A stretch of 64,000 nucleotides of DNA from a virus. Shown here one piece after another: positions 3,578 through 60,094 of this stretch. The notes beneath the pieces were generated by a model. It had not been told where the DNA came from, did not search any database, and saw nothing but the letters and a program-made list of their open reading frames with translations. The number at the start of each line of letters is the position of its first letter. Within the stretch, counting starts at the first letter, position 1. The stretch is from IMG/VR virus record IMGVR_UViG_3300032308_002775, positions 32,001 through 96,000 of that record; one strand, written 5' to 3'. Both the position numbers and the translations under genes were made by a program.

Positions 3578-3928
3578 GTGAGCATGCGCAAGTATCACGG
3601 CGAAATGGCTGGGCCGCAGCACGGAGATTCCGTGCTTAACTGGCCGGGCACGATGGACGGCTTTCCGGTGCTTGGGCCGCGCGGCCAGGTCAACGATCTC
3701 AAGAAAGAAGAGCTCGACAACCTCGATCTCCGATTCGACTTCAAATCGCGGATGTTTGAGCTGTGGGAGCCGGATCAGAAGGCCGATTTTGACGACGTAA
3801 ATGATAAGATAGTGAACGGTTGGTACCGGCTCGTGAAACGGTCCGACAACTGGGACGACGAGAAAAAACACTTTCGCGTGTGGATGGAATGGTTCCAGGT
3901 TTACGGAATGATTCCACCGAGGCAGTAA
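3578..3928 (+). CDS. hypothetical protein (116 aa, Cys-free)
   Basis: GAGGA RBS before GTG; compact alpha/beta-like sequence. Confidence 0.7.
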   Translation: MSMRKYHGEMAGPQHGDSVLNWPGTMDGFPVLGPRGQVNDLKKEELDNLDLRFDFKSRMFELWEPDQKADFDDVNDKIVNGWYRLVKRSDNWDDEKKHFRVWMEWFQVYGMIPPRQ

Positions 3929-3931
3929 ACC

Positions 3932-4849
3932 ATGGCAGAAACCAAACAAAGCGCTTCGAACTGGACCAGCTATTTTCTCGGCGAGTCCACCAGCCCGGCC
4001 ACGCAGATGTTTAACAAGGCGCGGGAGGCTGTAACCGCTGCGGATACAGCCAAGTGGAATCAGCAGCACGGCCAGACCCTGCTCAACACGATGGCGCTCA
4101 CGGGCGGCGTCGGCATGGGCGGCCTGGCGCTCTACCACCTGCTCCGCGGCCTGAAGCCGACCGGCAAGAAGGAGCGGAAGTACCAAAACATTGCCGCGGG
4201 TTCGCCGGTCATGGCCAAGTCGCCGCTTGAGGCGCCGCAGGAGAAGGCGGCTGTTCTCGACCAAATCGTCAGCGGTGTCGGATCCGTGCCGGGCGCGATT
4301 GTTGACTCTTTCCCCAGGCTGTTCAAGTCGCTGGGTGAAGCTGGCGCCGCGCCCAAAGATCCCAACATGCTGCGCGGTGCGGTCGCCACGACGCTCGGCA
4401 CCGGCCTGGGCCTGGGCGCCCTGTACGGCGGCGGCAAGCTGATCAACTCGATCATGGCAAAGAAGCAGAAGGACGACGCGACCGACGAAGTCGAAGAGGC
4501 CCGCGCCCGGTATCACGCCATTCTCGCGGGCAAGGAAGCCGCCGCGCTCGACAAGCTGTATGCCCGTTATCAGGAAAAGCGCGCCGAGGGCTGGCTGGAC
4601 GGTTTGTTGGAAATTGGCACGGATTCGGCGCCCCGCGTGGCTTTGACGTCCATGCTGCTGGCCGGACTCGGCGCGGGCGGCATTGGCGCGAAGTACATGT
4701 ACGACCAGACGGCAGCGAAGACCCGCGGCGAAAACCTGGCCAAGGCCCAGGCATCGCGCGCGCGCATGAAGGGCCTGCCGACGATGTGGGTTGACCCGGA
4801 AGAACTTGTGAAGGTTAAGCAGCTGGCAGAACAAAGCAGCGATGAGTGA
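3932..4849 (+). CDS. putative internal head/ejection protein with repeated Gly-rich hydrophobic helices
   Basis: Three GxGxGG-type hydrophobic segments separated by EKAA/KEAA/EKRA motifs; no Cys. Confidence 0.6.
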   Translation: MAETKQSASNWTSYFLGESTSPATQMFNKAREAVTAADTAKWNQQHGQTLLNTMALTGGVGMGGLALYHLLRGLKPTGKKERKYQNIAAGSPVMAKSPLEAPQEKAAVLDQIVSGVGSVPGAIVDSFPRLFKSLGEAGAAPKDPNMLRGAVATTLGTGLGLGALYGGGKLINSIMAKKQKDDATDEVEEARARYHAILAGKEAAALDKLYARYQEKRAEGWLDGLLEIGTDSAPRVALTSMLLAGLGAGGIGAKYMYDQTAAKTRGENLAKAQASRARMKGLPTMWVDPEELVKVKQLAEQSSDE

Positions 4850-7800
4850 GCGCAATGCCAGACTCGATCCTCTCCGGTCCGCCTGCGCCCATCACGCCGA
4901 CGCCGCAACCACAAGCGCCGCTGCAGACGCGCTCGTTCGGTGACATCGGCGCGCTGCGCACCAACATCTTTGATCGGGCGCTGCAGAGCGCTTCTTCTCT
5001 CGAGCCGATCAAGAACGACCTCTACACGCTGCAGCTTGCGAACGTCGCATACACCGGGCCGGAAAGGTTCACCAAGGCCGATCAAAAGAAGGCCGTGCTC
5101 ACGGGCAACTCGCTCCATCGGCGGCTCACGGGCACCTGGAACCTGATCGACAACACCACCGGTGCGCCGATCGCCACCCGGCAGCAGACGATCGCCCACG
5201 TGCCGTATCTCACCGACTCTGGCACGTTCGTGAACCGGGGTGTCGAGTACACCCTGGCCCACCAGATGCGGCTCAAGGCGGGCGTCTACACCCGCGAGAA
5301 GGACAACGGCGAGCTGGAGGCCCACGTCAACGTGCTGCCCGGCAAGGGGCGCATGCACCGGTACTTCCTCGACCCGAAGACCGGCGTGATGAACATCAAC
5401 ATCGGCCAGGCGAAGATTCCGCTGATGCCGCTGCTCAAGGCGATGGGCGCCAAGGACTCCGACATCCGCGCCGCTTGGGGCAACGAGATCACCGCCGTCA
5501 ACATGGAGAAGGGCGATGCGGGAACGCTCGACAAGCTCTACCAGCGTTTGGTCTACCGGCAGACTCCCGGCATCGACGCAGCTGCCAAGCAAAAGGCAAT
5601 TGCGGACGAGTTTGCCCGCATGGAACTCGACCCCGACGTTACGCGGCGCACTCTTGGCAAGGAATACAAGAACCTTACCCCCGAAGCAATTCTCGACATT
5701 ACGAAAAAGCTCATCGCCCTCAATCGCAAAGAGGCCGACCCCGATGACCGTGACGCAATGGCGTATCAAAGCATCGTTGGGCCCGAGGATCTGATCTCCG
5801 AACGGTTCACCAAAGACAAGCAGGCGCTGCGCAAGTTGCTCTGGAAGGCGACGGCTAAGAAGAACCTTGACCACGTCCCGACCGGCGTGTTCAACAAGGC
5901 CATCCAGGCCGCGCTGATTGGCTCTGGGTTGGGCAGTTCGCTCGAGGAAATCAACCCGGCCGAGATTTTCGACCACCAGGGCCGCGTGACTCGCATGGGC
6001 GAGGGCGGCATCGGCTCGCTTGACGCCGTGCCCCAAGAGTCGCGCTCTGTGCAGCCCAGCCACCTGGGCTTTGTGGACTTCCTGCGCACGCCAGAGTCTG
6101 GCAAGGTGGGCGTCGACATGCGTTTTGCCCGCGGCGCCATGAAGGGCACCGACGGCAAGATCTACACGCCGGTCGTGAACATACAGACCGGCGAGACAGA
6201 GATGAAGACGCCAGGCGAGCTGGCCGAGACGCCGCTCGCTTTTCCGGGCGAGGAAAAGACCGACATGCCGATGGTCGCGGCACTCGTTGGCGGCAAGATG
6301 CAGTACGTGCCGCGTGAGGAAGTCCAGTTCTCGCTGCCCAACATGGACAGCACGTTCTCCGCGCTTTCGAACATGGTTCCGCTGAAGAGCATGATGAAGG
6401 GCCAGCGCGCGGTGATGGCCAGCCGCATGTTTACCCAGGCGCTGCCGCTCTCGGGAGCCGAGGCGCCGCTCGTGCAGTCGGCCGTCGTCGACAAGGACGG
6501 CGTGTCCCACGAGGACGAGATGGGCGAGAAGCTCGGCGCCGTGAAGGCCCAGTTTCACGGCCAGGTCGTTTCGGCCGAGCCGGGCATGATCGTGCTGCGC
6601 GATCGTGAGGGCAAGAAGCACGAGATCGACCTGTACAACGACATGCCCTTTAACCGGAAGACATTCTGGCACCAGACGCCGGTCGTGAAGCCAGGCGACG
6701 TGATTAAGCCGGGGCAGCTTCTGGCCCACTCGAACTTCACGGACCCTAGCGGCACAGCGGCGATGGGCAAGAACTTACGTGTCGCCTATTTGCCGTACCA
6801 GGGGAAAAACTACGAAGACGCCGTGGTGATCTCGGAATCGGCGGCCAAGAAGCTCACCAGCGAGCACATGTACCAGCACGAGGCTGAGTGGACCGAGAAC
6901 AGCCACGTCGGGAAGAAGGCGTTCGTTGCGCTGTTTCCGGGCGAGTACGACAAGAAGCAGCTCGAGAACTTCGACGACAAGGGCGCGATCAAGAAGGGCA
7001 CGGTCGTGAACTACGGCGACCCGCTGATCCTCCAGGCCAAGGCCAAGGAGACAACCTACGGCAAGGTGCATCGCGGCCGGGCGGGAAACTTCATGAACGA
7101 GACGCTGACTTGGGAGCACCACTCGCCGGGCGTGGTTACCGACGTTGAGCACACCGACAAGGGCGTCTCGGTCGTTGTGAAGAGCCAGGCCGAAATGCAG
7201 GTGGGCGACAAACTTACGGGGCGCTACGGCGACAAGGGCGTGGTAGCCGACATTGTTCCAGACCACCGCATGCCACAAGACAAGGACGGCAGTCCGTACG
7301 AGGTGCTTGTTTCGCCGCTGGGTCTGATCTCCCGCGTGAACCCGGCGCAGGTCGTCGAAGCGGCGCTCGGCAAGATTGCGGCGAAGACCGGGCAGCCGTT
7401 CAAACTCAAAGACTTCGACAGCGCGCAGGACCTCGTAGAGTTTGCCCAGAACGAGCTTGGGAAGCACGGCCTCTCCGATACTGAGGACGTCACGGATCCG
7501 GAAACCGGTCGTAAGATCAAAAGCGTGCTGACCGGCAACCGGTTCTTCATGAAGCTCCATCACACCGCGGAGTCCAAGGGCCAAGGCCGCGCGATGAGCA
7601 GCTACACGGCGGAGGGCACTCCGGCCAAGGGCGGCAGCGAGGGCGCCAAGCGCGTCGGCATGCTGGACCTGGGCGCGCTGCTCTCCCACGGCGCGGGCAA
7701 AGTCATTCGTGACGCCAAGATGGTCCGCGGGCAGGCGAACCCCGAGTACTGGTCGCAGTTCATGGCGGGCTACACTCCGCCGCTGCCCAAGGTGCCGCAC

Positions 7801-9261
7801 GTCTACGAGAAGTTTGTTAACCAGCTCAAGGGCGCTGGAATTAACACCGTGCGCGAAGGGACAAAGACGCACATCATGGCGGTGACCGACCGCGACATCG
7901 ATGAGCTGGCCGGGGCCCGCGAGGTCACCAACTCCGAGACAGTCGACTGGAAGGGGCGGCTCAAGCCGATCAAGGGCGGCCTGTTCGATGAAACGCTCAC
8001 CGGCGGCCACGGCGGCAACCGCTGGAGCAAGATCACGCTTCACGAACCGATGCCCAACCCGGTCATGGAGGAGCCAATCCGCCGGGTGCTCGGGCTTACC
8101 GAGAAAGAGTTCCGCGGAGTGCTCGCCGGGCAGGTGCAGCTGTTCGACAAGACCGGCCCGGAGGCCATCCAGGGCGCCCTGGGGCGGATCAACCTGCCCA
8201 AGGCGATCGAGCAGGCCAGGTTAGATATCAAATCGGGACGCAAGACTTTGCGCGACGCCGCCGTGCGGAAGCTGGGATACCTCAAGAACGCTGAATCGAC
8301 CGGCGTCCATCCCAAGGACTGGATGATGAGCAAGGTCGGCGTGCTCCCGCCGATTTTTCGGCCCGTCTCCACGATGGGCGCCAAAAAGTTACCGCTCGTG
8401 GCCGACGCGAATTACCTCTACAAGGAACTGCTCGACGCGAACGACACGCTCAAGGAAGCCTCCGGCGCCCTGAGCGAATACAGCGACGAACGGCTGGGCC
8501 TGTACGACGCCATGAAGGCCGTCTCCGGGTTGGGCGATCCGACGCAGCCCAAGAATCAGGAACGCCGTGTGAAGGGCTTTTTGCAGCACGTCTTCGGCAG
8601 TTCGCCCAAGTACGGCACCGTGCAGCGCAAGCTTCTCTCGACCACGGTCGACTTGGTGGGGCGGGCAGTTATTACGCCGAACCCGGACCTCGACATGGAC
8701 CAGGTCGCGCTTCCCGAGGACAAGGCCTGGGAGGTCTACAAGCCGTTCGTGGTGCGGGGCCTGGTGCGCCGCGGAATGCCCCGGATGAATGCGCTGGACG
8801 CCGTCGAAAACCGCAACAAGGCGGCGTACGACGAGCTGAACACGCAGATGTCGTCCCGGCCGATCGTCATTAACCGTGCGCCGGTGCTCCATCGATACGG
8901 TATGATGGCGTTTTATCCGAAGCTCACCAAGAACAAGGTTATGGAGGTTAACCCGGTCATTACCAAGGGTTTTGGCGCCGACTTTGACGGGGACGCGATG
9001 CAGTATCACGTTCCCAGCACCGAGGACGCCGCCAAGGAAGCCGTCGAAAAAATGCTTCCAAGCAAAAATCTCTTTTCGACGGCAAGCTTCAAGGCCCACT
9101 TTGTTCCGAACAGGGACTATCAGACCGGGGTTTACCTGGCTTCGAGCCGGGTCGACAAGAAACAGAAGCCGAGGGTATACAAGTCACGGCAGGACGCCAT
9201 GAACGCCTATCGCCGCGGGGAGATTGACGTCGACACCCCGGTGCATATCGTCGAGAGTTAA
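4846..9261 (+). CDS. phage multisubunit RNA polymerase, fused beta + N-terminal beta' (catalytic DFDGD)
   Basis: Beta motifs: PYLTDSGTFVNRGVE, TPESGKVG, RAVMASRMFTQALP, GKNYEDAVVISE, GDKLTGRYGDKGVV, PLGLISRVN, FMKLHH, GAKRVGMLD. Beta' motifs: ETVDWKGRLKPIKGGLF, VLPPIFRP, VDLVGRAVI, NRAPVLHR, GADFDGDAM. Alternative start ATG 4855. Confidence 0.95.
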   Translation: MSAMPDSILSGPPAPITPTPQPQAPLQTRSFGDIGALRTNIFDRALQSASSLEPIKNDLYTLQLANVAYTGPERFTKADQKKAVLTGNSLHRRLTGTWNLIDNTTGAPIATRQQTIAHVPYLTDSGTFVNRGVEYTLAHQMRLKAGVYTREKDNGELEAHVNVLPGKGRMHRYFLDPKTGVMNINIGQAKIPLMPLLKAMGAKDSDIRAAWGNEITAVNMEKGDAGTLDKLYQRLVYRQTPGIDAAAKQKAIADEFARMELDPDVTRRTLGKEYKNLTPEAILDITKKLIALNRKEADPDDRDAMAYQSIVGPEDLISERFTKDKQALRKLLWKATAKKNLDHVPTGVFNKAIQAALIGSGLGSSLEEINPAEIFDHQGRVTRMGEGGIGSLDAVPQESRSVQPSHLGFVDFLRTPESGKVGVDMRFARGAMKGTDGKIYTPVVNIQTGETEMKTPGELAETPLAFPGEEKTDMPMVAALVGGKMQYVPREEVQFSLPNMDSTFSALSNMVPLKSMMKGQRAVMASRMFTQALPLSGAEAPLVQSAVVDKDGVSHEDEMGEKLGAVKAQFHGQVVSAEPGMIVLRDREGKKHEIDLYNDMPFNRKTFWHQTPVVKPGDVIKPGQLLAHSNFTDPSGTAAMGKNLRVAYLPYQGKNYEDAVVISESAAKKLTSEHMYQHEAEWTENSHVGKKAFVALFPGEYDKKQLENFDDKGAIKKGTVVNYGDPLILQAKAKETTYGKVHRGRAGNFMNETLTWEHHSPGVVTDVEHTDKGVSVVVKSQAEMQVGDKLTGRYGDKGVVADIVPDHRMPQDKDGSPYEVLVSPLGLISRVNPAQVVEAALGKIAAKTGQPFKLKDFDSAQDLVEFAQNELGKHGLSDTEDVTDPETGRKIKSVLTGNRFFMKLHHTAESKGQGRAMSSYTAEGTPAKGGSEGAKRVGMLDLGALLSHGAGKVIRDAKMVRGQANPEYWSQFMAGYTPPLPKVPHVYEKFVNQLKGAGINTVREGTKTHIMAVTDRDIDELAGAREVTNSETVDWKGRLKPIKGGLFDETLTGGHGGNRWSKITLHEPMPNPVMEEPIRRVLGLTEKEFRGVLAGQVQLFDKTGPEAIQGALGRINLPKAIEQARLDIKSGRKTLRDAAVRKLGYLKNAESTGVHPKDWMMSKVGVLPPIFRPVSTMGAKKLPLVADANYLYKELLDANDTLKEASGALSEYSDERLGLYDAMKAVSGLGDPTQPKNQERRVKGFLQHVFGSSPKYGTVQRKLLSTTVDLVGRAVITPNPDLDMDQVALPEDKAWEVYKPFVVRGLVRRGMPRMNALDAVENRNKAAYDELNTQMSSRPIVINRAPVLHRYGMMAFYPKLTKNKVMEVNPVITKGFGADFDGDAMQYHVPSTEDAAKEAVEKMLPSKNLFSTASFKAHFVPNRDYQTGVYLASSRVDKKQKPRVYKSRQDAMNAYRRGEIDVDTPVHIVES

Positions 9262-9274
9262 CACGGAGGTTTCC

Positions 9275-10009
9275 ATGAGTTTCACGGTCAATCCCGAACT
9301 GCTGAAGATGGCGCGCCATGCCCTCGAAAAGTCGGCGGTGGTGCCATCCGACGCGGCGATGATGGCGGCAGGCGGCGCGCCCCCAATGGGCGGCGAACCG
9401 CCCGATCCTTCCATGCTTGGCGTTCAGGGCGCCGCCCAACCGGTTGACCCAGCGACTGCTGCCATGGGCGCCGCGCCGCCTCCGGGCGCTGACCCGACTG
9501 GCGCGGCCACCGCTGCGGCGCCCCCTGCCGCGGCGGCCCCGGCTCCGATGCCACCGGCCACGCCGACTGGCGGCGCACCTGGCCAGCAGAAGCTCAAGCC
9601 CGAGCAGATGATGCAGATGCTCGACTACCGGCTTTACAACATGCAGCAGCAGCTCACGGCGATCATGAACGCCATGGGCGTTCAGGTTCCCCCCGAGTCG
9701 CTCGTCCTGCCGCCCGGCACGACCGGCGCGCCTCCAGCCGAGACCGCGCTGCCCGGCGGACCGATGGCTCCGCCGCCCCAGGACCCTAACGCCGCTGGTG
9801 GTCCGATGCCTCCAGGCGGCCCGGTGCCCCCGGGCGGCCCGATGGATCCCAGCCAGCCTCCGATGGACCCCGCCGCTGCCAAGCAGGCGAACTGGTGGGA
9901 TAAGCCGTTGGCGAAGTTTGCTGAAGAACAACCTGACGAGCCGACGTCGATCCAGAATCTGGCGGCGGCGGCGGGCATCCTGCTGAGGAACATGGGGCGT
10001 GCGCGTTAG
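9275..10009 (+). CDS. Pro/Gly/Met/Ala-rich low-complexity protein (244 aa) between the RNAP genes
   Basis: GGAGGT RBS before ATG 9275; EKSA and KQA motifs; central helix QMMQMLDYRLYNMQQQL. Confidence 0.75.
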   Translation: MSFTVNPELLKMARHALEKSAVVPSDAAMMAAGGAPPMGGEPPDPSMLGVQGAAQPVDPATAAMGAAPPPGADPTGAATAAAPPAAAAPAPMPPATPTGGAPGQQKLKPEQMMQMLDYRLYNMQQQLTAIMNAMGVQVPPESLVLPPGTTGAPPAETALPGGPMAPPPQDPNAAGGPMPPGGPVPPGGPMDPSQPPMDPAAAKQANWWDKPLAKFAEEQPDEPTSIQNLAAAAGILLRNMGRAR

Positions 10010-10241
10010 ATTTCAGAGCAAGTTGCAGCCGACCGTCGCACCCGCGGACAGCGTGGTGATCGAGGACGACCTGGGAAACCCGCTCTTCGTGGCGTCTCAG
10101 CTCACCGACTCGATCATTTTTGCTGATGCGCGGGATGCAGATTTTCACGCGCTTATACGCCAGCTCGGCATCGACAAAGTGGTTTCCGTTAACGAGGTCG
10201 CGCCTAAACCGCTGAACAAGAACGTGATCTGGACGCCGTAA
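9999..10241 (+). CDS. small hypothetical protein (80 aa)
   Basis: GAGGA RBS; fills the gap and stops 1 nt before the beta'-C gene. Confidence 0.65.
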   Translation: MRVRFQSKLQPTVAPADSVVIEDDLGNPLFVASQLTDSIIFADARDADFHALIRQLGIDKVVSVNEVAPKPLNKNVIWTP

Positions 10242-10242
10242 C

Positions 10243-12123
10243 ATGCTCAAGACGACGCTCGGTCAAATTCTCGTAAACGAGGCGCTGCCCGAGGACATGC
10301 GCAACTACGAGCGCGTCCTGACCAAAAAGGAAATGGGCAAGCTGGCCACGGAGCTGGCGCAGAAGTACCCGGACAAATACCGGGACGTCATGAAGCGCCT
10401 GCACGACGTGGGCCGCGACGCTGCGTACACCACGAACGGCCTGTCGTTTGGGCTGAAAGATATCAAACCGACGGTGGCCGCCCGCGACGTACAACTGCGG
10501 GTGCAGCGGCAGCTCCGCGGCATTCTGGCAAACCGCGACCTGGACGATAAGACCCGCTCGCTGGCCATTCTCAAGCTGGCCGCTGGCGCGCAGAAAGAGC
10601 TTGTCGAGCGCGTTTACGATGAGGCGCGCGGCAACGACAACCCGCTCGCGCATCAGGTAACCGGGTCTGCCGTCGGCAACAAGTTCAGCCTGAATTCGCT
10701 GATCGGCGCCGACATGCAGTATGTCGACCACAAGAACGACCCAATTCCGATTCCGGTGATGCGGAGTTACGGCCAGGGGCTTCGACCCGTGGAATATTTT
10801 GCGGGCGCCTTCGGCACCCGCAAGGGGTTGATGGACCTAAAAACGGCGACGGCCGACGCGGGCTTTTTCGGCAAACAGCTCGCCCAGATGACGCACCGGC
10901 TGCTCGTCACGGCCGACGATGACGACGATCAAGAGCGCAATGCCACTGCGCAAGACCGCGGCTTTCCGACCGACGTGGACGACGTCGACAACGAGGGCGC
11001 GCTTCTGGCGCGACCGGTGGGGCCGTACAAGCGCAACACCGTCCTGACGCCAAAGATTCTTAAAGACATCAAGGAGATGGGCATTCAGGACATCCTGGTG
11101 CGCAGCCCGCTCACCGGCGGCCCGGACGACGGCGGCGTCTACGCCAAAGACGTCGGCTACCGCGAGAAGGGCAAGCTGCCTCCAATCGGCGACTATGTCG
11201 GTATCGCCGCCGCCCAGGCCCTCTCCGAGCCGGTGACTCAGGCGCAGATCAGCTCGAAGCACTCCGGCGGCGTGGGCGGCGCGGCCTCAATCTCGGGCTT
11301 CAAGGCGATTAACGCGCTAGTCCAGGTCCCGAAAAAGTATCCCGGCGGCGCCGCGCATTCTCAGCTTGACGGATTCGTGCAGGAAATCCGCGAAGCGCCC
11401 CAGGGCGGCCATTACGTTCAAATCGGCGGCGAAGATCATTACGTGCCGGTCGACCAGGAGCTGACGGTCAAGAAGGGGCAAGAGGTCGAGGCGGGCGACT
11501 CGATCACCAATGGCATGCCCAATCCGGCCGAAGTCGTCCGGCACAAGGGCATCGGCGAGGGGCGCAGGTACTTTGTGCAGGCCATGCGCCAGGTTCTCCA
11601 GAACTCCGGCGTGTCGCCTCACCGCCGTAACATTGAACTGCTCTCGCGCGGGCTGGTCAACCACGTTCGCATGACCGACGAATACGGTGATTACAACCCC
11701 GACGACGTGGTGCCGTACTCGATGCTCGAGCGTGCTTGGCAGCCGCGTCAAGGAAGCGTGACGGGCGTGCCCAAAAGCCTGCAGGGGCATTACCTGGAGC
11801 GGCCCGTGCTCCACTACTCGGTCGGCACGAAGATCGGCAAGAATGTCGCCAGCACGCTTCAAAAGTACGGCATTAACAATGTCGAAGCGCACCGGGAACC
11901 GCCGCCCTTCCAGCCTGAAATGGTGCGCGGCATGTCGAACATCTCGAACGACCCAGACTGGATGACCCGAATGCTCGGTTCTTACCAGCAAAAGGGCCTG
12001 CTCAGCAGCGTGCACCGCGGTTCGACCAGCGACGCGGCTGGAAGCAGCTTCGTTCCCGCGCTGGCCCGCGGCGAAACGTTCGGCGTGACCGGCGCGACGA
12101 GCGGATGGCGCCCGCAAACGTGA
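10243..12123 (+). CDS. phage multisubunit RNA polymerase, C-terminal part of beta' (bridge helix, trigger loop)
   Basis: TTLGQILVN; GLSFGLKDI; bridge helix GLRPVEYFAGAFGTRKGLMDLKTATADAGFFGKQL; trigger loop GDYVGIAAAQALSEPVTQAQISSKHSGG; HRRNIELLSR. Confidence 0.93.
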   Translation: MLKTTLGQILVNEALPEDMRNYERVLTKKEMGKLATELAQKYPDKYRDVMKRLHDVGRDAAYTTNGLSFGLKDIKPTVAARDVQLRVQRQLRGILANRDLDDKTRSLAILKLAAGAQKELVERVYDEARGNDNPLAHQVTGSAVGNKFSLNSLIGADMQYVDHKNDPIPIPVMRSYGQGLRPVEYFAGAFGTRKGLMDLKTATADAGFFGKQLAQMTHRLLVTADDDDDQERNATAQDRGFPTDVDDVDNEGALLARPVGPYKRNTVLTPKILKDIKEMGIQDILVRSPLTGGPDDGGVYAKDVGYREKGKLPPIGDYVGIAAAQALSEPVTQAQISSKHSGGVGGAASISGFKAINALVQVPKKYPGGAAHSQLDGFVQEIREAPQGGHYVQIGGEDHYVPVDQELTVKKGQEVEAGDSITNGMPNPAEVVRHKGIGEGRRYFVQAMRQVLQNSGVSPHRRNIELLSRGLVNHVRMTDEYGDYNPDDVVPYSMLERAWQPRQGSVTGVPKSLQGHYLERPVLHYSVGTKIGKNVASTLQKYGINNVEAHREPPPFQPEMVRGMSNISNDPDWMTRMLGSYQQKGLLSSVHRGSTSDAAGSSFVPALARGETFGVTGATSGWRPQT

Positions 12124-12204
12124 TTCTGTAGGATGTAAGAGCTGCGACACGGTAAATTGTTGCTTACACGTGTCTTAAGATTGTGCCGCACGGAGGTGGC
12201 TACT

Positions 12205-14580
12205 GTGTACAACCGGAAGAAGACTGCGTCGTCGACGGCGCACTGGCTGAATGTGGTCCGTTCGCATAGTCGGACCCAGACCAAGCAGGCCAATTTCGGC
12301 GGGAAGGGCGACTCGGCCTCGTTCGAGCAGGCCTTTAGCAATCTGGCGCACGCCTACCTCCGCGACTCGGCGCCGAAGCTGCTTGATCACGAGATCGGCT
12401 TTCAGCTGCTCGACCGGGACCGCGAAAACACCAAGGCGATTGGCGTTTTTGCTTTCAAAGTCGGCTCTAACTGGCTGTACGCCCCGGTTTTTTTCCTGAA
12501 CGGCGACCTCAAGGGCCACGAACTCCTGTACATCAAGAACCAGGACATGTTCGTGCCGCTCAAGGAAAACTGGATTAACTACCTTGTCAACCGCAAGCCC
12601 AACATCCTGGGCAATTCGGTGGACCGCAACATGTCCCAGCTGGGCATGCGGCAGCCCGACTTCACGCAGCTCTCGCGCAGCCCGGCCAAGTTCGGCTCCG
12701 CGCGGCCGACGCTCAAGGAGATGATGACGGCCGTTATGCCGACCCTGGCCAAGACGGCCACGATGAACACGGCGCTGGCGTTCCAAGAAATTGGCCGCGT
12801 GCTCGATCTGCCGAAGTTTCTCAAGGAAGCTCGCGTCACGACGATCGACATGCTCGTCAAGACGTTTCAGGACGCCCCGGCGCTCGCCAAGGCGTTTAAC
12901 GACTTTCACGGCCTGGACGTGATCAAGGAGGCCATCGCGGTCGCAAAGGACCGCGAAAGCCGCCCGAAGATCGCCAGCGTGCTGTCGGAAGCCCCGGAAA
13001 AGAGCCCGGCTGTCGCCGGGCTCAAGATCATTTCCTACTCGAAGACCGTGCAGACGATGCTGCCGCCGGAAACGACTGAGGAAGACCAGGAGAAGCTGCT
13101 GCGCGACGGCGTGCTTATCCTCGACCAGCGCGACCGTGACAACGTCTCGATTCCCTACCACATCCAGGTTGAAAAGAAGCTTTGGAACCCGACAAAGAGC
13201 GGGCTGTACGACATCCTCGTTAAGCCGGGCAACATCGAACGGGTTTACATCGCCATGTTCCCGATGGGCGCCGCAAAGCGTTCAAACTTCTGCACGATTG
13301 TTCGGACCGAGGGCAAGCCCGAGTGGATCAACACTCGTAGCGACCAGGTCTTCTGCATCGCGTGCCCTTCTCAGAAAGAGGAGGAAGCGTGGTTTGACGG
13401 CTTGCCCGACGCCGATAGCCTGCCTTCTGGGGGCCGGTACATGCTCATCAGCAAGCGCGGTGACGCCACCGTCCCGGTCCGCGTGATCCGCGAGTACGGC
13501 GAGAGCGCGTACGGCACGACGAGCTACGAGGTCCACATGGAGGACCACTCGAAGTTCCCGCCCAAGGGATCAATCGGCCCGTGCGGCTACATCGACCCGC
13601 TGAATTACGACAAGTACCGCGACGGCGTGCGGCTGCACCTCAACGGCAAGAAGGGCAGCCAGCTCCGCGCGAGCATGGGCGACATCTTCGTGCCCGAGGG
13701 CTTCAAGCTTCTCAAGTGCGCCCCTGGCGAGGACGACGCCGAGACAGCCGAGGACCAGGGCGCCTGCGGCTGCGGTCAAAGCGAGATGCCGCCGCTGATG
13801 CCGGGCAACCTGGCGGATGCCCAGCTCGAACTGATGGGCAAAACGGCCAGCCTTGAGGTCTACCACAACGGCACCGAGGTCACGATCAACAAGGAGGCGG
13901 CCCGCAGCCCGATCGCCGCGCTGGTGACGCTCGTCGAGCATCACGGCCTGCGCGAGGACGCCGCGCGCGAGATTCTCAAGCAGGCGGCCGCCAAGCGGAA
14001 GTTCTCCTGCCATGTGAAGTACGCCAACCCTTATGGCGCGCCGATGATGGTCAACCAAGGCCCGACCGCCCCGAGCGATCCGGGCCCGGTGATGGGCGGC
14101 GAGACGATCATGGGCGCCGACGTGCCGACCCAGATGGGCATCGACATCGGCATGCCGGTGGCGGACATGTCGGCCAGTCTCACGGACCGGCAGATCTACA
14201 ACCCGAACACGCGGCTCGACAAGAAGGACGTCCGCAGCGTGCTGCAGGCGGCCCAGTCCGGCCAGAAGGAAGTGTTCGACACGGCGATGATCGGCAGCAT
14301 GCTCCGCGCCGTCCGCGACGACTCGATGGTTGATCGCTACATGGGCGACCTGACCAACGGGCTCGACAAGCTCGGCCGCATCCTGTTCATGTTCTACTGG
14401 CACGGCGACCGGTTTGCTGATCGGTACGGCAAGTCTGACATGCCGGAGCTGGAGGACTCGCTGCGCAACGCCTTCGAGATGCTCGGCGACGTGATTCTCT
14501 TCCTCAAGCAGAAGACTATCGAGCCGTATCCGGAAGAGGTTGGCTCAGACGCCGATCTCTCTAATGTCGCAAGCGCTTAA
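12205..14580 (+). CDS. large putative head-core/inner-body protein (about 791 aa)
   Basis: GGAGGT RBS before GTG 12205; repeated KTA/KQA/KEA/KYA motifs; lies between the RNAP and protease genes. Function is inferred. Confidence 0.6.
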   Translation: MYNRKKTASSTAHWLNVVRSHSRTQTKQANFGGKGDSASFEQAFSNLAHAYLRDSAPKLLDHEIGFQLLDRDRENTKAIGVFAFKVGSNWLYAPVFFLNGDLKGHELLYIKNQDMFVPLKENWINYLVNRKPNILGNSVDRNMSQLGMRQPDFTQLSRSPAKFGSARPTLKEMMTAVMPTLAKTATMNTALAFQEIGRVLDLPKFLKEARVTTIDMLVKTFQDAPALAKAFNDFHGLDVIKEAIAVAKDRESRPKIASVLSEAPEKSPAVAGLKIISYSKTVQTMLPPETTEEDQEKLLRDGVLILDQRDRDNVSIPYHIQVEKKLWNPTKSGLYDILVKPGNIERVYIAMFPMGAAKRSNFCTIVRTEGKPEWINTRSDQVFCIACPSQKEEEAWFDGLPDADSLPSGGRYMLISKRGDATVPVRVIREYGESAYGTTSYEVHMEDHSKFPPKGSIGPCGYIDPLNYDKYRDGVRLHLNGKKGSQLRASMGDIFVPEGFKLLKCAPGEDDAETAEDQGACGCGQSEMPPLMPGNLADAQLELMGKTASLEVYHNGTEVTINKEAARSPIAALVTLVEHHGLREDAAREILKQAAAKRKFSCHVKYANPYGAPMMVNQGPTAPSDPGPVMGGETIMGADVPTQMGIDIGMPVADMSASLTDRQIYNPNTRLDKKDVRSVLQAAQSGQKEVFDTAMIGSMLRAVRDDSMVDRYMGDLTNGLDKLGRILFMFYWHGDRFADRYGKSDMPELEDSLRNAFEMLGDVILFLKQKTIEPYPEEVGSDADLSNVASA

Positions 14581-14589
14581 AGGTGAAAC

Positions 14590-14985
14590 ATGGCAAGTAC
14601 GATTTGGTCCGGCGAGACGACGTTTGAAGCAACCAGCGGTTCACAGACTGTAGTCCCGATTCGGGTGCCGCACCGCGGTATTCTCCGCGGCTACAGCCTC
14701 ACGCAGACCAGCGGCGCCAACGCCGGTGCCGCCGCGGCTTTGTACACCAGCAAGCAGGACACCGCGCCAAACAACACGCTTCCCGCCGAGGCGTTTCACA
14801 TTCTCGACATCACGCTACCCACGGCGGCCAAGGTCGACGACCACAGCGCCGAAGTTGCGTACATCAACCGAGATGGCACGCCCACGAACCCGCAAAGATA
14901 TCTTTACTTGAAGATCACTCCGGCGGGGTCGGGCGCCAAGAACTTTGTGTTCTCGGTGACGATTGAAGTCCCGAAGATGGGCTAA
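14590..14985 (+). CDS. beta-rich hypothetical virion protein (131 aa)
   Basis: AAGGTG RBS; Thr/Ser/Ala-rich beta-strand pattern. Confidence 0.65.
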   Translation: MASTIWSGETTFEATSGSQTVVPIRVPHRGILRGYSLTQTSGANAGAAAALYTSKQDTAPNNTLPAEAFHILDITLPTAAKVDDHSAEVAYINRDGTPTNPQRYLYLKITPAGSGAKNFVFSVTIEVPKMG

Positions 14986-17871: not shown

Positions 17872-18981
17872 ATGGACGCCGAAAAGCTAGACGACATTTC
17901 GCGTTCCCTTGCGCTTTGCGCCGTGACGGGTAACCGCTCGGAGCTTGTCAAGGTCGCTGCGGAATACACCAAGCAAGCGGCCGGGCCCATGGATTACCTG
18001 GCCAATCCCTATGTGCGCAATGCGCTGCTGGGTCTTGGTGCCGGTGGCCTGGTTGGAATGCTGCAGCCCAAGCGCAAGCTGCGTAACGCGCTGACGTATG
18101 GTCTCGTCGGCGGCCTGGGCGGCGTGGGTTTGACTCCGCTGCTCAATCAACTTGGCGCGGCTGAAGCAGCTGAACCAAAACCCGATCAAACGGCCGGGCG
18201 CGAAGTTAAAGATCTTGGCGCCGCGGCAGAGATGGTGGCAAACGCCGACCCCGAGGCGCGCCGCGCTGTCGGCGCTGGAATCGGCGCCCTTACCGGCGCC
18301 TCAGCAGGTTATCGCGGCACCGTCGGTTTGCTGAAAAACCGTAACGCGCTGCAAAACCTGCTGGACGTGGAGACGAACGCCGCCAATGCTCGCAACTGGC
18401 GAGGGGCGCCGCGGCCCGCGCAGGTCAGTAACGACACTCTCGCTGCGCGCCAGGCGTTGCTGCCCGTGCGAAATGCGCTACAGCCGGGTGCGCCCAGGCC
18501 GCAGCAGCAGGCGTTTGTTGATGAAGTCATCCGCACCGCGCCTGGAGCAAGCCCGTCGGCGTCCCCCGACACGCGGCGGCTTCAGGCATTGGCGACACTC
18601 GGCGACGCCAGCGAAGCGGTGCGCCCTGGCGGCGTTCCGTTTTTACGTCGCGAGTCTCTTCCCGCTTTTATCCGCAACAGGCTCCCTGGGACCGACGGCA
18701 CGCGCGCGCTGGCGGCGCTTTCCGAAGCGGCCCAGGCCGCTGAAACTAGCGGCGCAGCGGCTGCTGGCGCCCCGGTCCGCGCAACACCGTCGGCAAACCA
18801 GCTTCACAGAGCGCTTGCCGAAGCAAACCGGCTTGCGCCCACGACCTGGCGGCAGCGCGCCGCCGGTGGGTTGGGCGCAATGGGCTTGGGCTATCTCGGC
18901 AGCCTTCTTGGTGGCTCGCTTGGCGAAGGTCAGGCAAACTTTGCAAACAGAGCCTTCCAGCAGAAAGCGTTCGGGCAATAA
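17872..18981 (+). CDS. putative internal head/ejection protein (369 aa)
   Basis: KVAA/KQAA near the N-terminus, then several GLGAGG-type hydrophobic helices. Confidence 0.6.
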   Translation: MDAEKLDDISRSLALCAVTGNRSELVKVAAEYTKQAAGPMDYLANPYVRNALLGLGAGGLVGMLQPKRKLRNALTYGLVGGLGGVGLTPLLNQLGAAEAAEPKPDQTAGREVKDLGAAAEMVANADPEARRAVGAGIGALTGASAGYRGTVGLLKNRNALQNLLDVETNAANARNWRGAPRPAQVSNDTLAARQALLPVRNALQPGAPRPQQQAFVDEVIRTAPGASPSASPDTRRLQALATLGDASEAVRPGGVPFLRRESLPAFIRNRLPGTDGTRALAALSEAAQAAETSGAAAAGAPVRATPSANQLHRALAEANRLAPTTWRQRAAGGLGAMGLGYLGSLLGGSLGEGQANFANRAFQQKAFGQ

Positions 18982-18982
18982 C

Positions 18983-20440
18983 ATGAGCATGATCAAAGTT
19001 ATCCAGCCGAACTCGCAGGACTTCAGCGAGCCGGTGGCGTCGCTGATCAAAATCTCCAGCCACGGCTTGCTGGGCGCCGACCGCGACGCGTTTGTGAAGC
19101 GCGCTGGGCACGAGTTCGCCGAAAAGCTTGAGCAGGTCAAGTTTGCTGCGGACGAGATTCCCGTCCACCTGATCGCCATTGGCGCCACCGAGGACTACGG
19201 CCCGAACCGTAATGCCGACGGGTTCACGCGTGATTGCTGCCGCAAGTATCACCACACGTTTGAGAAGTACGCGAAGTTTTATCGCGACCACCTCAACAAG
19301 AACCCGGCCAAGAGTTACGGCGTTATCAAGGTCGCTGCCTACAACGAGCCGATGAAACGGATTGAGCTGGTCTGCGCGCTGAACGGCTCCAAAGAGGCGG
19401 CCGAGCGCAACGGCGGTCTACTCGCTGACAAGGAAATGGAGAAGCTGGCGCGGGGCGATGATATCGGCGTCTCGATGGCCTGCAAGATCCCATTCGACGT
19501 CTGCTCCGGCTGCGGCAACAAGGCGCGCACCCGGGCCGAGTACTGCGATTCCGTTGAAAACGGCGGCATGTGCAAGGCAGGCGGCCTGAGACACAACCTG
19601 GGGCGGGTCCTCGACGACGGGCACATCCTGCACGCCGACAACCCTAATCCCAGCTTCTTTGATATCTCGCACGTGTTTCGCCCCGCGGACCGAATTGCCT
19701 ACATTTCTGGGCAACTCAAGGCGGCCAGTGCTGGAGTTCTCTCTGGCGCCGCGCTGGCCGAGGAACTGGGCGTTACGGCGCCGAGCGGTTTTGATCGCGA
19801 GCCCGGCGCATCGCTTCGTTTGGCAACGCAGCTCGACGCGCTCGACAAGCTCGCCGCCGCGGAGGCCGCTGCGGCAAGCAACCTCGCTGGTTGGGGCCAG
19901 GTTGCGTTGGCTGCCAACTCCGCGGTTCAGCCGCGCGTCGACTTTGTCCCCTGCGAGCACGTCAAGCTGGCCGAGGCTCTCCGGGCGCTGGCCGACGCGG
20001 GCGTAATCCTTCCGGTCCGCGAGTTCCTGGCGCTCACCGTAAAGTCGGCGGGCGACGAATTAGTTCATGCTGTTACTAGCGCGCTGGACGGCGTCTTCAC
20101 TAAACTAGCGAGTGACCCCGATGTTGTCGTGGCGCTCGAAACTAACGCGTATTTCCCGGCTGCTGTTGCTTCTGGCAAGGTTCGCGCGTGGGCGGAGAAA
20201 GTCGCGTTAACGCACAGTATTCTTCCGCAAGCGGTGGAGAAGCGCGCCTATCAGGCCGCGCTACGAAACGCGCAGGTGGGTGAGTTAGTTAGGGAGAAGG
20301 GCGCCAGTTCGACCTCGGCGGTGGGCCTTGCGCGGCAGTACGCTTTCTATAAGATTGCTGCCTACGCGTCCCTTAGCGAGAAATATGGAAACTGCTGGTT
20401 GACAGCAAACCATTGTGTTCTGCAAAATTATGTCACGTGA
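18983..20440 (+). CDS. prohead (capsid maturation) protease, HK97/herpesvirus-type fold with Cys-rich insert
   Basis: PNRNADGF...YRDHLNK...SYG...VSMACKIPFDVCSGCGN...FFDISHVFRPADRIA; located upstream of the scaffold and capsid genes. ATG 18983 follows the stop at 18981. Confidence 0.75.
   Translation: MSMIKVIQPNSQDFSEPVASLIKISSHGLLGADRDAFVKRAGHEFAEKLEQVKFAADEIPVHLIAIGATEDYGPNRNADGFTRDCCRKYHHTFEKYAKFYRDHLNKNPAKSYGVIKVAAYNEPMKRIELVCALNGSKEAAERNGGLLADKEMEKLARGDDIGVSMACKIPFDVCSGCGNKARTRAEYCDSVENGGMCKAGGLRHNLGRVLDDGHILHADNPNPSFFDISHVFRPADRIAYISGQLKAASAGVLSGAALAEELGVTAPSGFDREPGASLRLATQLDALDKLAAAEAAAASNLAGWGQVALAANSAVQPRVDFVPCEHVKLAEALRALADAGVILPVREFLALTVKSAGDELVHAVTSALDGVFTKLASDPDVVVALETNAYFPAAVASGKVRAWAEKVALTHSILPQAVEKRAYQAALRNAQVGELVREKGASSTSAVGLARQYAFYKIAAYASLSEKYGNCWLTANHCVLQNYVT
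20399..20428 (+). promoter_or_regulatory. candidate sigma70-like promoter for the scaffold/capsid operon
   Basis: TTGACA-N18-CAAAAT in an AT-richer patch at the 3' end of the protease gene. Confidence 0.35.
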
Positions 20441-22880: not shown

Positions 22881-23807
22881 ATGCCTACTCAGCAAGAAAT
22901 CCAGCTGCTCAACGAGACCCTCTTCGAGCAGCTCGACACCCCCGGCATGCAGAAGCAGGCCGTTGACGCTGTTAACGACTTCACGCGCACCAAGATGCGT
23001 GAAGACGGGTTCTATCGGCGGATTATGCCGCCGCTCACCATCACCAATGACGAGCTCGACCGCCAGGTCGATACCGACAAGCCGGTGAAGGTGGTCGACA
23101 AGGAACCCGATTCCCCCGCGGCTGTGTCGCTTCCGTTCGCGACGCTCCCGATCAACTTCTACATCCGTGGCCCGCGCTACCGCGTCATGTTTGACCGGAT
23201 CGTGTCGCCCCGCGCTGTGAAGGACGTCGACGAGCTGCGCACCTACGTGATCGACATCCGGCAGGTTCTTTCCGACAACATGATCAAGGACATGTTGGCG
23301 GAAGAGGACTCGAAGTTCATCGCGGCCCTCGACGCCGTCCTCCCGACCCCGGGTGTGGCGAACGTCGCTTCGGGTGCGGTGCAGTACGAGGAAATCCACG
23401 GCGGCATCACGCGTGAGACGATTGTCGACGCGCTGAAGGTCATGCCGCGGACGCCCTCGCACTTCGAGGTCGAGACCTGCCTGGTGAACAACATCACCAT
23501 CAAGGAGCTGCTGAAGTTTGGCCGCGACGAGATGGGTGGTGACTTCTCGCAGGACATCATCAAGAACGGTTGGGCGGAGACCAACTTCCTCAACTGCCGC
23601 TGGATCGTCACGATCAAGCGCGACCTTGTTGACGACGACACGATGTACATGTTCGCGTCGCCCAAGTTCATTGGCAAGAATTACGAGCTCGAGCCGACCA
23701 CGATGTACATCCGTCGTGAGGCTTACATGCTCGAGTACTTCGCCTACAACACGCAGGGCGGCTCGTTCGGTCACACGAACGGCCTGGCCCGCGTGGACTT
23801 CAAGTGA
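22881..23807 (+). CDS. major capsid protein (putative HK97 fold, 308 aa)
   Basis: Size, strongly optimised codons and strong RBS; position after protease/scaffold; REDGFYRRIMPP and IKDMLAEEDSKFI (backbone-helix-like); followed by a strong hairpin. Confidence 0.7.
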   Translation: MPTQQEIQLLNETLFEQLDTPGMQKQAVDAVNDFTRTKMREDGFYRRIMPPLTITNDELDRQVDTDKPVKVVDKEPDSPAAVSLPFATLPINFYIRGPRYRVMFDRIVSPRAVKDVDELRTYVIDIRQVLSDNMIKDMLAEEDSKFIAALDAVLPTPGVANVASGAVQYEEIHGGITRETIVDALKVMPRTPSHFEVETCLVNNITIKELLKFGRDEMGGDFSQDIIKNGWAETNFLNCRWIVTIKRDLVDDDTMYMFASPKFIGKNYELEPTTMYIRREAYMLEYFAYNTQGGSFGHTNGLARVDFK

Positions 23808-23884: not shown

Positions 23885-24280
23885 ATGGATAACGTTAAGG
23901 TTGCGGCTGAGCAGGCTTACAGCACGATCGTGTCGGAACTTGCCGCGCCGTATTTTTTCGAGAAGCTCGCCGCGCACGGCCTGTCGCCGCGTTCGGAGAA
24001 GGAGGCTGCGGACATGTGGACCGCCGCCACCAAGCTTCATGTGCTCTTCACGGCTGAGCGGGAAAAGGCGGCCGCGGCGAGCGCGACGAATCTGGACGCC
24101 GTGAACGAGCGGCTGGACCAGATGCTCGACGCTGCGGGTCTCGGCTCCTCGAACACTGTCGCTGAAAAGTCGGCTGCGTTCTATGGGGCTGCGGACGTTG
24201 CGGCCGAGCAGCCCGAGATTGCAAAGGCGGTTCTGACGCTGCAAGCCGCCGCCTTCGCGGCCTCGCAGCACGCCGAGTGA
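23885..24280 (+). CDS. small K-x-A-rich head protein (131 aa)
   Basis: AAGGAG RBS; VKVA, EKLA, EKEA, EKAA, EKSA. Confidence 0.7.
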   Translation: MDNVKVAAEQAYSTIVSELAAPYFFEKLAAHGLSPRSEKEAADMWTAATKLHVLFTAEREKAAAASATNLDAVNERLDQMLDAAGLGSSNTVAEKSAAFYGAADVAAEQPEIAKAVLTLQAAAFAASQHAE

Positions 24281-28024: not shown

Positions 28025-28171
28025 TAGCGCGCAACTGTTAAACCGTGTATCGTATGGATAACGACAAGAAACCAAGCCCGATGCTCCCCAAGATCAAGCT
28101 CCGGGGCGCGAAAATCCGGATGCTGCCCCAAATAAAGCTGCGCGGTGAAAGCGCGGCAAAGGACGGCTCGC

Positions 28172-28885
28172 GTGACCGACTGCAACGACCTGCCGAATCC
28201 GCCGGAAGTTGAGGCGCTGTTCCCCGAGGGGAGCGTGCCGGAACCGCGCCTGAACAAGGTCAGTGCGCTGTGTTCCTACGGTATGCGGCCGCACGTTATG
28301 ACCGGCCTGATCCGGCAGCTGCTGCTCGGGCACTTTTCGGACCCAGACAATATTGAAGAACCCCGCGTCCGGCGGCAGCTGGCTGAGATCGGCATGTGGC
28401 GGCCGAGTGATAACGGTTTGAACGCGGGCGGCATTCTGATAGAAAGTATTACGCGTTGGCAACCCGCAACCGCTGACAAGCGCCCGGCTGTGTTAATTCG
28501 CAGAAATTCCTGGCGTTGGCAGCGGCAAGGAGTTGGCGACCAAATCGGCGGCAATGTATACGAGGGTTCGCTGAGCTACGCCGGAATGTGGGAGGGCAGC
28601 CACACGTTGTTCTGCCTCTGTCCGAGCGGTGCCGAAACCGAGTTCCTTGCCACGGAAGTCGTTAAGTTTTTACACCAATTCTCCCCCTGGATTCGCGAGC
28701 AGATGAATCTTCACCGGTTCATGGTGAGCGAAGTTGGCGGGATCGGAGAAGTTCAAGAAGCGTTACAGGGTTACGCCGTTCCTGTAACGGTTGCATATGT
28801 TGCCGAGGAAGCCTGGACGCTCCAGCCGTATGCGCCGCGCCTTAAGCGGATTGTTCTGAAGGCGACTGACCTCTTGTCGTACTAA
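28172..28885 (+). CDS. putative tail terminator/completion protein
   Basis: AAGGA before GTG 28172; KRPAVLIRR and alpha/beta pattern; directly upstream of the sheath gene. Confidence 0.5.
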   Translation: MTDCNDLPNPPEVEALFPEGSVPEPRLNKVSALCSYGMRPHVMTGLIRQLLLGHFSDPDNIEEPRVRRQLAEIGMWRPSDNGLNAGGILIESITRWQPATADKRPAVLIRRNSWRWQRQGVGDQIGGNVYEGSLSYAGMWEGSHTLFCLCPSGAETEFLATEVVKFLHQFSPWIREQMNLHRFMVSEVGGIGEVQEALQGYAVPVTVAYVAEEAWTLQPYAPRLKRIVLKATDLLSY

Positions 28886-60091: not shown

Positions 60092-60094
60092 ACC

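Follow-up and report, generated by a model that had tools for sequence, protein, structure and literature searches.

The stretch of DNA analysed here (the window; 64,000 nucleotides) comprises bases 32001–96000 of a 153,669-base IMG/VR virus contig, IMGVR_UViG_3300032308_002775, which has no end repeats, is an estimated 75% complete and derives from an uncultured phage genome of ~200 kb (complete relatives are ~205 kb). Two of its genes probably encode a working bacterial-type two-barrel RNA polymerase (RNAP), re-partitioned into a beta subunit fused to the N-terminal part of beta' (beta::beta'-N) and a separate C-terminal part (beta'-C). Both chains are free of cysteine (Cys), and they belong to a large natural clade in which both beta' zinc sites appear to have been replaced with all catalytic motifs kept. 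The enzyme is most likely packaged in the phage particle and delivered with the DNA, as suggested by its position among head genes, its likeness to injected phage proteins and the particle proteome of phage Arash, which carries the closest known system.

Catalytic anatomy, cysteine content and zinc sites

Pfam searches with the first chain returned RNA_pol_Rpb2_6 (PF00562, E 2e-50, residues 583–921) and then RNA_pol_Rpb1_2 (PF00623, E 1e-23), with Rpb2 domains 2, 3 and 6 running straight into Rpb1 domains 1 and 2. The second chain matched RNA_pol_Rpb1_5 (PF04998, E 2e-23) and, over residues 2–480, the rpoC model TIGR02386 (E 8e-58). This domain order identifies the first chain as beta continuing into beta'-N as far as GADFDGD; the second chain is beta'-C. 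The beta/beta' joint lies near GINT/VREG (nt 7837–7860) and is followed by the clamp helices (nt 8404–8523) and the catalytic Mg-binding GADFDGD (residues 1377–1383, nt 8974–8994), shortly after which the first chain ends. The catalytic lysine motif of beta, GDKLTGRYGDKG, aligns with GDKMAGRHGNKG of Salmonella, and the trigger-loop region of beta'-C (nt 11206–11271) keeps its histidine. With all of these elements present the RNAP looks functional, and there is no sign of a dead gene.

No Cys was found in the 2097 residues of the two chains, compared with a contig-wide frequency of 1.4% (rough gene call). The probability of such an absence is ~1e-13 at 1.4% Cys and 5e-8 at the 0.80% of Salmonella RpoB and RpoC. 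Cys codons (TGY) do not occur in frame, but in the other two frames there are 67 and 23 (90) in the large-chain gene and 29 and 12 (41) in the beta'-C gene. Because TGT and TGC are frequent out of frame and absent in frame, the exclusion acts on the protein and not on the DNA; the absence of Cys is due to selection, not to drift or base composition. Neighbouring proteins carry Cys, with 8 in 1191–2216, 9 in 12157–14580, 15 in 18386–20440, 9 in the sheath protein and 18 in 51857–53383; further virion-block proteins have 14, 13 and 12, the range among baseplate/fibre proteins being 12–18.

The exclusion is strict and old, the same absence being found in relatives. A word-indexed search with the large chain yielded >1100 relatives, whose reading frames stay open in hundreds of cases; among the best 120 (74–91% identity) 110 had no Cys and four had one. 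For a more distant set, cluster representatives at the 50%-identity level were searched exhaustively; this yielded 150 proteins of 45–62% identity, many of them 1800–3350 amino acids (aa) long, in which Cys made up 0.13% of the aligned parts vs 1.97% of the inserts (probable inteins). A Cys-free host protein interrupted by Cys-rich probable inteins shows cleanly, as a control provided by nature, that selection concerns the mature protein. For beta'-C, essentially every lineage down to 49% identity was Cys-free (72 IMG/VR loci), as were 99% of 67 orthologues. The six genes of 3578–12123, together with 14590–14985, were Cys-free in 66–99% of orthologues, and flanking genes had 1–4.7% Cys. When this genome was compared with two relatives at 77% and 52% RNAP identity (G002 and G006), the RNAP, a sigma-like factor, a protein in tape-measure position and a few small virion-block open reading frames (ORFs) were Cys-free in all three.

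As far as we know, cellular RNA polymerases all conserve the two beta' zinc sites, which are regarded as structurally indispensable. In the window enzyme the zinc ribbon (C70/C72/C85/C88 of Salmonella beta') is a clean 32-residue deletion within GGLFDETLTGGHGG/NRWSKI (residues 1044–1063 of the first chain, P0001; nt 7975–8034). The deletion is common to the window, Arash and Vibrio phage D69, and we infer that the ribbon is gone across the whole family, having been lost in the family ancestor. The second site (Salmonella C814/C888/C895/C898) reads D/G/Y/D, within TADDDDDQ and RSPLTGGPDDGGVYAKDVG (nt 10909–10932 and 11101–11157). It was non-Cys in all 15 window-clade members examined (window included), which share a conserved patch, GG(V/L)(Y/F)x(K/R)D, at this place (GGVYAKD in the window). 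The site is still CCCC in Salmonella, Arash gp216, D69 0264 and a metagenomic lineage, L075; the four ligands are the only Cys of beta'-C in Arash gp216 and D69 0264, and L075 has six. A quick maximum-likelihood tree of beta'-C placed the 53 sequences with 0 or 1 Cys in one clade (SH-aLRT 97), apart from L075, Arash/D69, Salmonella and phiKZ, with long outgroup branches that make the deeper order unsafe. Absence of the second site fits a single loss, since maintained, and the aligned sequences show a stepwise loss of both zinc sites, of the ribbon family-wide and of the second site in the window clade.

An earlier sequence-only reading of the window had described the missing Cys of both chains, the Cys of neighbouring structural proteins, the deleted ribbon and the lost ligands of the second site, all of which were borne out by these counts and alignments. 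The comparisons it proposed, of Cys content in homologous phage RNAPs against bacterial RpoB and RpoC and of phylogeny with metagenomic phage RNAPs (run here for beta'-C), gave the Cys contents and the single Cys-poor clade reported above.

Probable virion packaging and its alternatives

By sequence and genomic context, the closest known system is the RNAP of Arash (gp206 and gp216; OQ632216; PMC10585845) and of Vibrio phages D69, D148 and D181, which has the same partition, with a beta::beta'-N of ~1525 aa and a beta'-C of ~606 aa. The window large chain is 32% identical over 96–97% of its length to Arash gp206 and D69 0261, and beta'-C is 25–28% identical. Arash and D69 share the ribbon deletion and the neighbouring genes (gp218-like, gp222-like and capsid), and they are strongly Cys-depleted, with 1–2 Cys in the large chain and the four zinc ligands only in beta'-C; unlike the window clade, they have not replaced the second zinc site. 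Other differences concern the surroundings. The gene immediately 5' of the RNAP in Arash and D69 encodes the portal (so annotated in Arash alone), whereas no Arash-like portal was found upstream in the window contig; a Cys-free helicase, gp217, follows beta'-C in Arash, but none was found on the window contig, which is incomplete and where the one helicase detected has 6 Cys. The sigma genes of Arash and D69 show no pairwise similarity to that of the window.

The particle proteome of Arash provides indirect evidence for packaging. The large chain gp206 was the most-detected protein (128 unique peptides, 3516 spectra) and gp216 gave 40 unique peptides and 1210 spectra, against 32 peptides and 877 spectra for the portal and 30 and 1333 for the capsid protein (PMC10585845). 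Helicase gp217 and gp218 had 38 and 36 unique peptides, whilst a ligase, a primase and two ATP-dependent DNA helicases had 2 each (PMC10585845). The authors noted the enzyme in particles and were silent on cysteine or zinc (PMC10585845). The window RNAP genes belong to the head block and are upstream of the capsid gene, as the sequence-only reading had it. The distance to the capsid gene is 13.6 kb, and the capsid, sheath and baseplate genes share the strand of the RNAP. The order RNAP, gp218-like, gp222-like, capsid is common to the window, Arash and D69, and is followed by sheath and baseplate genes.

A proven packaged multisubunit polymerase, with in principle the same mode of action, is the virion RNAP of phiKZ-type phages (Chimalliviridae), composed of gp80, gp149, gp178 and gp180. 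It shares the two-barrel architecture, its genes are located among those for the head and carry the annotation head protein, its beta' is split into N and C parts, and it has no beta' zinc ribbon. It contains 0.61% Cys (16 Cys), compared with 1.16% (33 Cys) in the phiKZ non-virion RNAP, which has a ribbon at C58/60/73/76. Iyer et al. report that the non-virion phiKZ-type beta' carries the zinc ribbon, and that sigma factors are absent from all group 1 (phiKZ-type) phages. The phiKZ enzyme, however, has diverged much further from bacterial RNAP and has a second, non-virion RNAP as its partner, whereas the window has a single enzyme without Cys, in which beta is fused to beta', and a sigma factor. 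The different split of the phiKZ enzyme, which the sequence-only reading had noted along with its divergence, amounts to 4–5 chains against two here.

The contrast between 0% Cys in the RNAP and 1.4% genome-wide has parallels in N4, T7 and phiKZ, as an empirical correlate of packaging and not a definition of it. N4 gp50, a proven injected polymerase, has 0 Cys in 3500 aa, as the sequence-only reading had stated, and the non-virion N4 RNAPII has 13 in 673 aa. As gp50 is a single-subunit T7-like enzyme of unrelated fold, the likeness is a signature of lifestyle and not of ancestry. The ejected T7 proteins gp15 and gp16 have 0 Cys in 2065 aa, and the internal/ejected set of T7 averages 0.19% Cys vs 1.19% in its other proteins, with 12 Cys in T7 RNAP.

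In cellular rpoB-rpoC fusions the two zinc sites are retained, and alpha and omega are still required. Those of Helicobacter and Wolbachia (NCBIfam PRK09603 and PRK14844) join beta head-to-tail with a whole beta', and the fusion models match the window chain weakly; the window beta' is instead cut after the catalytic loop and has lost its two zinc sites, and the search for alpha returned no homologue. The 'moraphage' lineage (Arch Virol 2025), considered as possibly the same group, is a different one in which the authors found no RNAP genes. Within a limited literature search, we found no paper linking cysteine content to ejection proteins and none describing a zinc-free or Cys-free multisubunit RNAP.

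On balance we favour the reading that the RNAP travels in the particle and itself opens phage transcription, the purge of Cys protecting it on the way. The enzyme would be made late, together with the head proteins, and enter the capsid, where the sigma-70-family factor of the phage would probably accompany it; it would leave the particle together with the DNA and begin transcribing phage genes independently of the host RNA polymerase. Outside the reducing cytoplasm, during storage in the capsid and passage through tail and envelope, it would risk thiol oxidation, wrong disulfides and loss of zinc. Because of this time outside the cytoplasm, selection would have removed every free Cys, deleted the beta' zinc ribbon in the family ancestor and, in the window clade, swapped the second zinc cluster for the conserved metal-free patch. 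Delivery may involve unfolding of the RNAP, passage through the periplasm and refolding, and the beta-beta' fusion may compensate for a missing alpha scaffold when the enzyme is reassembled.

Several observations weigh against packaging and injection. A sucrose gradient was the sole means of purifying the Arash particles, and the authors allow for lysate carry-over; 116 of ~270 Arash proteins were detected, including ribonucleotide reductases and a ligase (PMC10585845). The non-ejected T7 scaffold gp9 and Arash capsid gp226 are also Cys-free. Homologues with normal Cys content and zinc sites in the same genomic context, which the sequence-only reading had named as evidence against packaging, were found in part: Arash, D69 and L075 keep the second site as CCCC, with Cys otherwise depleted and the ribbon gone in Arash and D69. 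Since the phiKZ virion RNAP has 16 Cys and Arash, like D69, keeps its zinc cluster of four ligands, a Cys-free and zinc-free state is not required for packaging, and the signature is suggestive, not diagnostic. As far as the sequences tell, the zero-Cys, zinc-free state is an extreme reached by one clade. With a single RNAP, moreover, the enzyme has to function once injected too, unless the phage relies on that of the host, and its role may be purely intracellular; the hidden Markov model search for a second RNAP was insensitive, as PF00562 finds one of the two phiKZ enzymes. A virion-packaged, injected polymerase, as first proposed from the letters, nevertheless stands as the best reading on the strength of the Arash proteome, the head block and the analogy with N4 and T7, whilst the Cys-free, zinc-free state has to be dropped as something that packaging needs.

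Among the alternatives, the best placed is a non-virion polymerase, with host RNAP transcribing the early genes and the phage RNAP and sigma factor running middle and late transcription inside the cell, and with the lack of Cys having another cause, such as tolerance of oxidative stress in the infected cell or evasion of a host or phage factor that targets thiols or zinc. We consider this unlikely. Phage-encoded sigma factors usually redirect transcription late in infection, which counts in its favour, and only one RNAP is detectable per genome, so the enzyme probably acts inside the cell too. An intracellular polymerase would, however, leave unexplained its position in the head block on the capsid/tail strand, and also a Cys-free rule that is shared with the tape-measure-position protein and not with the detected helicase. 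Those non-virion phage RNAPs that could be checked hold normal Cys (T7 RNAP 12, N4 RNAPII 13, phiKZ 33). Carry-over from the lysate may have contributed to the Arash proteome, yet the peptide counts of gp206 and gp216 match those of portal and capsid, compared with two peptides for each of the replication enzymes.

Less likely still is that the polymerase is packaged but that the purge serves prolonged storage of an active enzyme in an oxidising capsid in oxic water and not transit, perhaps with no unfolding or crossing of the periplasm. The Cys-free rule does extend to proteins needing no unfolding, such as small ORFs of the block, but virion proteins under the same conditions keep their Cys (sheath 9, baseplate/fibre 12–18). 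Likewise, passage does not forbid a zinc site, as Arash and D69 keep the cluster and the Arash chains are in particles, but the strongest purge is seen in the proven ejected proteins N4 gp50 and T7 gp15 and gp16. Storage and transit are not exclusive and are inseparable from sequence alone. Chance, base composition or decay of a non-functional gene has a negligible claim, given the calculated probability, the frequent out-of-frame TGY triplets, the Cys-rich inserts inside Cys-free host genes, the intact catalytic motifs and the open frames of relatives.

If the polymerase is indeed packaged, it would represent a second, independent lineage of injected multisubunit RNAPs, sigma-dependent and much closer to the bacterial enzyme than that of phiKZ, which raises the question of how a ~230-kDa enzyme leaves the capsid. 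The clade would offer a ready-made zinc-free and thiol-free multisubunit RNAP for studies of folding, assembly and refolding, and the Cys-free rule may help predict ejected proteins in uncultured phages. A bolder version is rather doubtful: that a complete holoenzyme free of metal clusters and thiols (beta::beta'-N, beta'-C and its own sigma) is packed, injected and serves as sole RNAP for the whole infection, which would make it the first natural multisubunit RNAP folding and working without structural zinc, and that 'persistently Cys-free' is a sequence-only marker of ejected proteins in tailed phages.

Probable sigma factor, other subunits and the search for a second polymerase

The putative sigma-factor ORF matched Pfam Sigma70_r3 at 38.4 bits (cut-off 25.3) and NCBIfam RpoD_Cterm at E 3e-8 over residues 85–257. 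A match to the region-4 helix-turn-helix was weak and below the Pfam cut-off, and the Sigma70_r2 model gave no match, although a 2.2-like YDPxKG motif is there. The 10 genomes searched, nine of them relatives and one the window contig itself, carry one copy of the gene each, and its product was without Cys in all 9 lineages examined, to as low as 36% identity. We modelled the sigma factor in complex with residues 1030–1400 of the large chain, alongside 3 controls. The complex scored 0.63 and the best control 0.00; in a benchmark of 80 solved complexes and 110 mismatched pairs, the score mark was reached by 58 and 2, respectively. Runs shared at least 69% of contacts, with partner pLDDT values of at least 66, and the modelled interface places sigma residues 45–85 (region 2) on the beta' clamp helices (1174–1237). 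Binding of sigma to these helices is a textbook solved interface, hence the model shows likeness only and does not amount to proof. The protein is the probable specificity subunit of the phage RNAP.

Further subunits were not recognised. PF01000 returned no alpha homologue in the contig or in 4 complete relatives, though very divergent analogues could escape such a search. The 305-aa protein encoded just upstream of the RNAP was considered as alpha-like and rejected, its AlphaFold2 model showing long helices at low confidence (pLDDT 49). The 80-aa protein was likewise rejected as omega-like; its model has four strands and one helix (pLDDT 75), and Foldseek found no match in the PDB at E <= 0.001.

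A second, non-virion RNAP, for which the sequence-only reading had advised looking, was not found in complete relatives in a search of limited power. PF00562 gave one match in each of five complete relatives (~205 kb), and the D-x-DGD loop occurred once in each of the fully retrieved relatives G002 and G006. The loop search has a gap of its own, in that phiKZ gp180, which we take to be the virion beta'-N chain, is without a D-x-D-x-D motif. No T7-type RNAP (PF00940) was matched, but control genomes also gave none, so this result is uninformative.

Gene neighbourhood, inserts and extensions

Table 1. Genes of the window discussed in the text, with window positions
Feature	Position	Strand	Remarks
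116-aa ORF	3578–3928	+	opens the conserved Cys-free block; 0 Cys
305-aa Cys-free protein	3932–4849	+	stop codon overlaps the RNAP start codon
RNAP beta::beta'-N, 1471 aa	4846–9261	+	0 Cys; Pfam domains and alignment
245-aa Pro/Gly/Met-rich ORF	9272–10009	+	between the two RNAP genes; 0 Cys read from the ATG at 9272
80-aa ORF	9999–10241	+	immediately 5' of the beta'-C gene
RNAP beta'-C, 626 aa	10243–12123	+	0 Cys; Pfam and NCBIfam domains
807-aa homologue of Arash virion protein gp218	12157–14580	+	9 Cys; closes the Cys-free block
131-aa Cys-free ORF	14590–14985	+	0 Cys in 96% of 52 orthologues
gp222-like gene	18386–20440	+	homologues Arash gp222 and phrog_2774; 15 Cys
Major capsid protein	22881–23807	+	30% identity, E 4e-40, to Arash gp226 (annotated major capsid protein)
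1168-aa Cys-free protein, tape-measure position	36744–40250	+	function by position only
Sigma-70-family factor, 270 aa	43232–44044	+	0 Cys; within the tail/baseplate gene block

The contig has a G+C content of 60%, with a dip to 52% at window positions 60001–62000 (~60% elsewhere), and nearly all genes are on the + strand. Most neighbouring genes gained no useful names from PHROGs and Pfam, and megablast of the RNAP locus against 50,697 phage records gave no match. Within the Cys-free block, the 116-aa ORF had 0 Cys in 66% of 56 orthologues (mean 0.30% Cys) and the 305-aa protein in 97% of 33, despite a median identity of only 32%; the corresponding figures were 83% of 36 for the 245-aa ORF and 92% of 48 for the 80-aa ORF. 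Pfam returned no match for the 116-aa, 305-aa and 245-aa proteins, nor did PHROG for the 305-aa protein. The 807-aa protein closing the block gave weak tblastn matches to Arash gp218 and D69 0266, and Cys was present in all 68 of its orthologues. The capsid gene is the most conserved gene (95% and 71% identity to G002 and G006). The gp222-like gene overlaps another + strand ORF, 17872–18981, by ~600 nt in a different frame; as homologues were found for the gp222-like gene only, the other ORF may be spurious or have a miscalled start.

The 1168-aa protein follows the sheath gene, identified by a weak, below cut-off match to Pfam Phage_sheath_1, and an ORF placed in tail-tube position from gene order alone. 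In this genome, G002 and G006 it lacks Cys, as do 40776–41582, 48297–48941, 23885–24280 and 14590–14985, and these five are candidates for other ejected or tail-lumen proteins. A 1090-aa Cys-free ORF lies 5' of the window (11890–15162 of contig G000; locus L086); Pfam gave no match for it, and neither of the two complete relatives compared has a counterpart. In other phages, ejected or internal proteins are Cys-free or nearly so, namely T7 gp15/gp16, N4 gp50/gp51/gp52 and phiKZ gp181 (1 in 2237 aa) (loci L116, L082, L081), and cytoplasmic enzymes of T7, N4 and phiKZ have 1.1–2.2% Cys. Near absence of Cys from ejected proteins thus looks like a general pattern.

A palindrome, AAAGATATCT(T/A)T with core AGATATCT, occurs in 30 copies contig-wide vs 0.8 expected, those in the window being at 14896, 16308, 25978, 26995, 27676, 41074, 46343 and 51965. 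It was considered as a promoter and rejected, as the copies are mostly inside genes and not common to relatives. We found no flanking consensus, and G002 and G006 show no enrichment of this palindrome but have different ones.

Eight of the best 120 large-chain relatives were ~345 aa longer and had 11–15 Cys, of which all, or all but one, lay inside the extra segment. This insert is in frame after an invariant LRTPE, starts with Cys and ends in GN followed by Ser (LRTPE/SGK), junction features on which it is a probable intein; Pfam, NCBIfam and PDB sequence searches did not recognise one. The 150 distant representatives have 13 sites at which inserts of 120 aa or more interrupt the chain in frame, 196 in total and as many as five in a single gene. 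Many of the inserts begin with C(F/Y)D..TE, and one site adjoins the catalytic DFDGD loop. The large-chain gene is accordingly a hot spot for probable inteins (P0010, P0124–P0273; loci L017, L044, L045, L049, L060 and L067).

In some relatives the large chain reads as two ORFs (L048 2963–8335; L078 314–7158; Vibrio phages D181 and D148), with the break near residue 934 and 0.25–1.8 kb between the ORFs. A homing endonuclease gene lies within the RNAP match in D181 and D148, and the split chains may reflect an intron or the insertion of a free-standing endonuclease. Some lineages carry a nearly Cys-free, lineage-specific C-terminal extension of beta'-C of 290–840 aa (L048 9983–14356; L054 9914–14104; L078 9794–14029; L071 9944–12754). 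In L054 this contains acylphosphatase, P-loop kinase and DUF5661 domains, and matches a stand-alone 541-aa 2H-SAK/DUF5661 gene located just 5' of the window (G000 27095–28720). The extension may be enzyme cargo riding on the polymerase.

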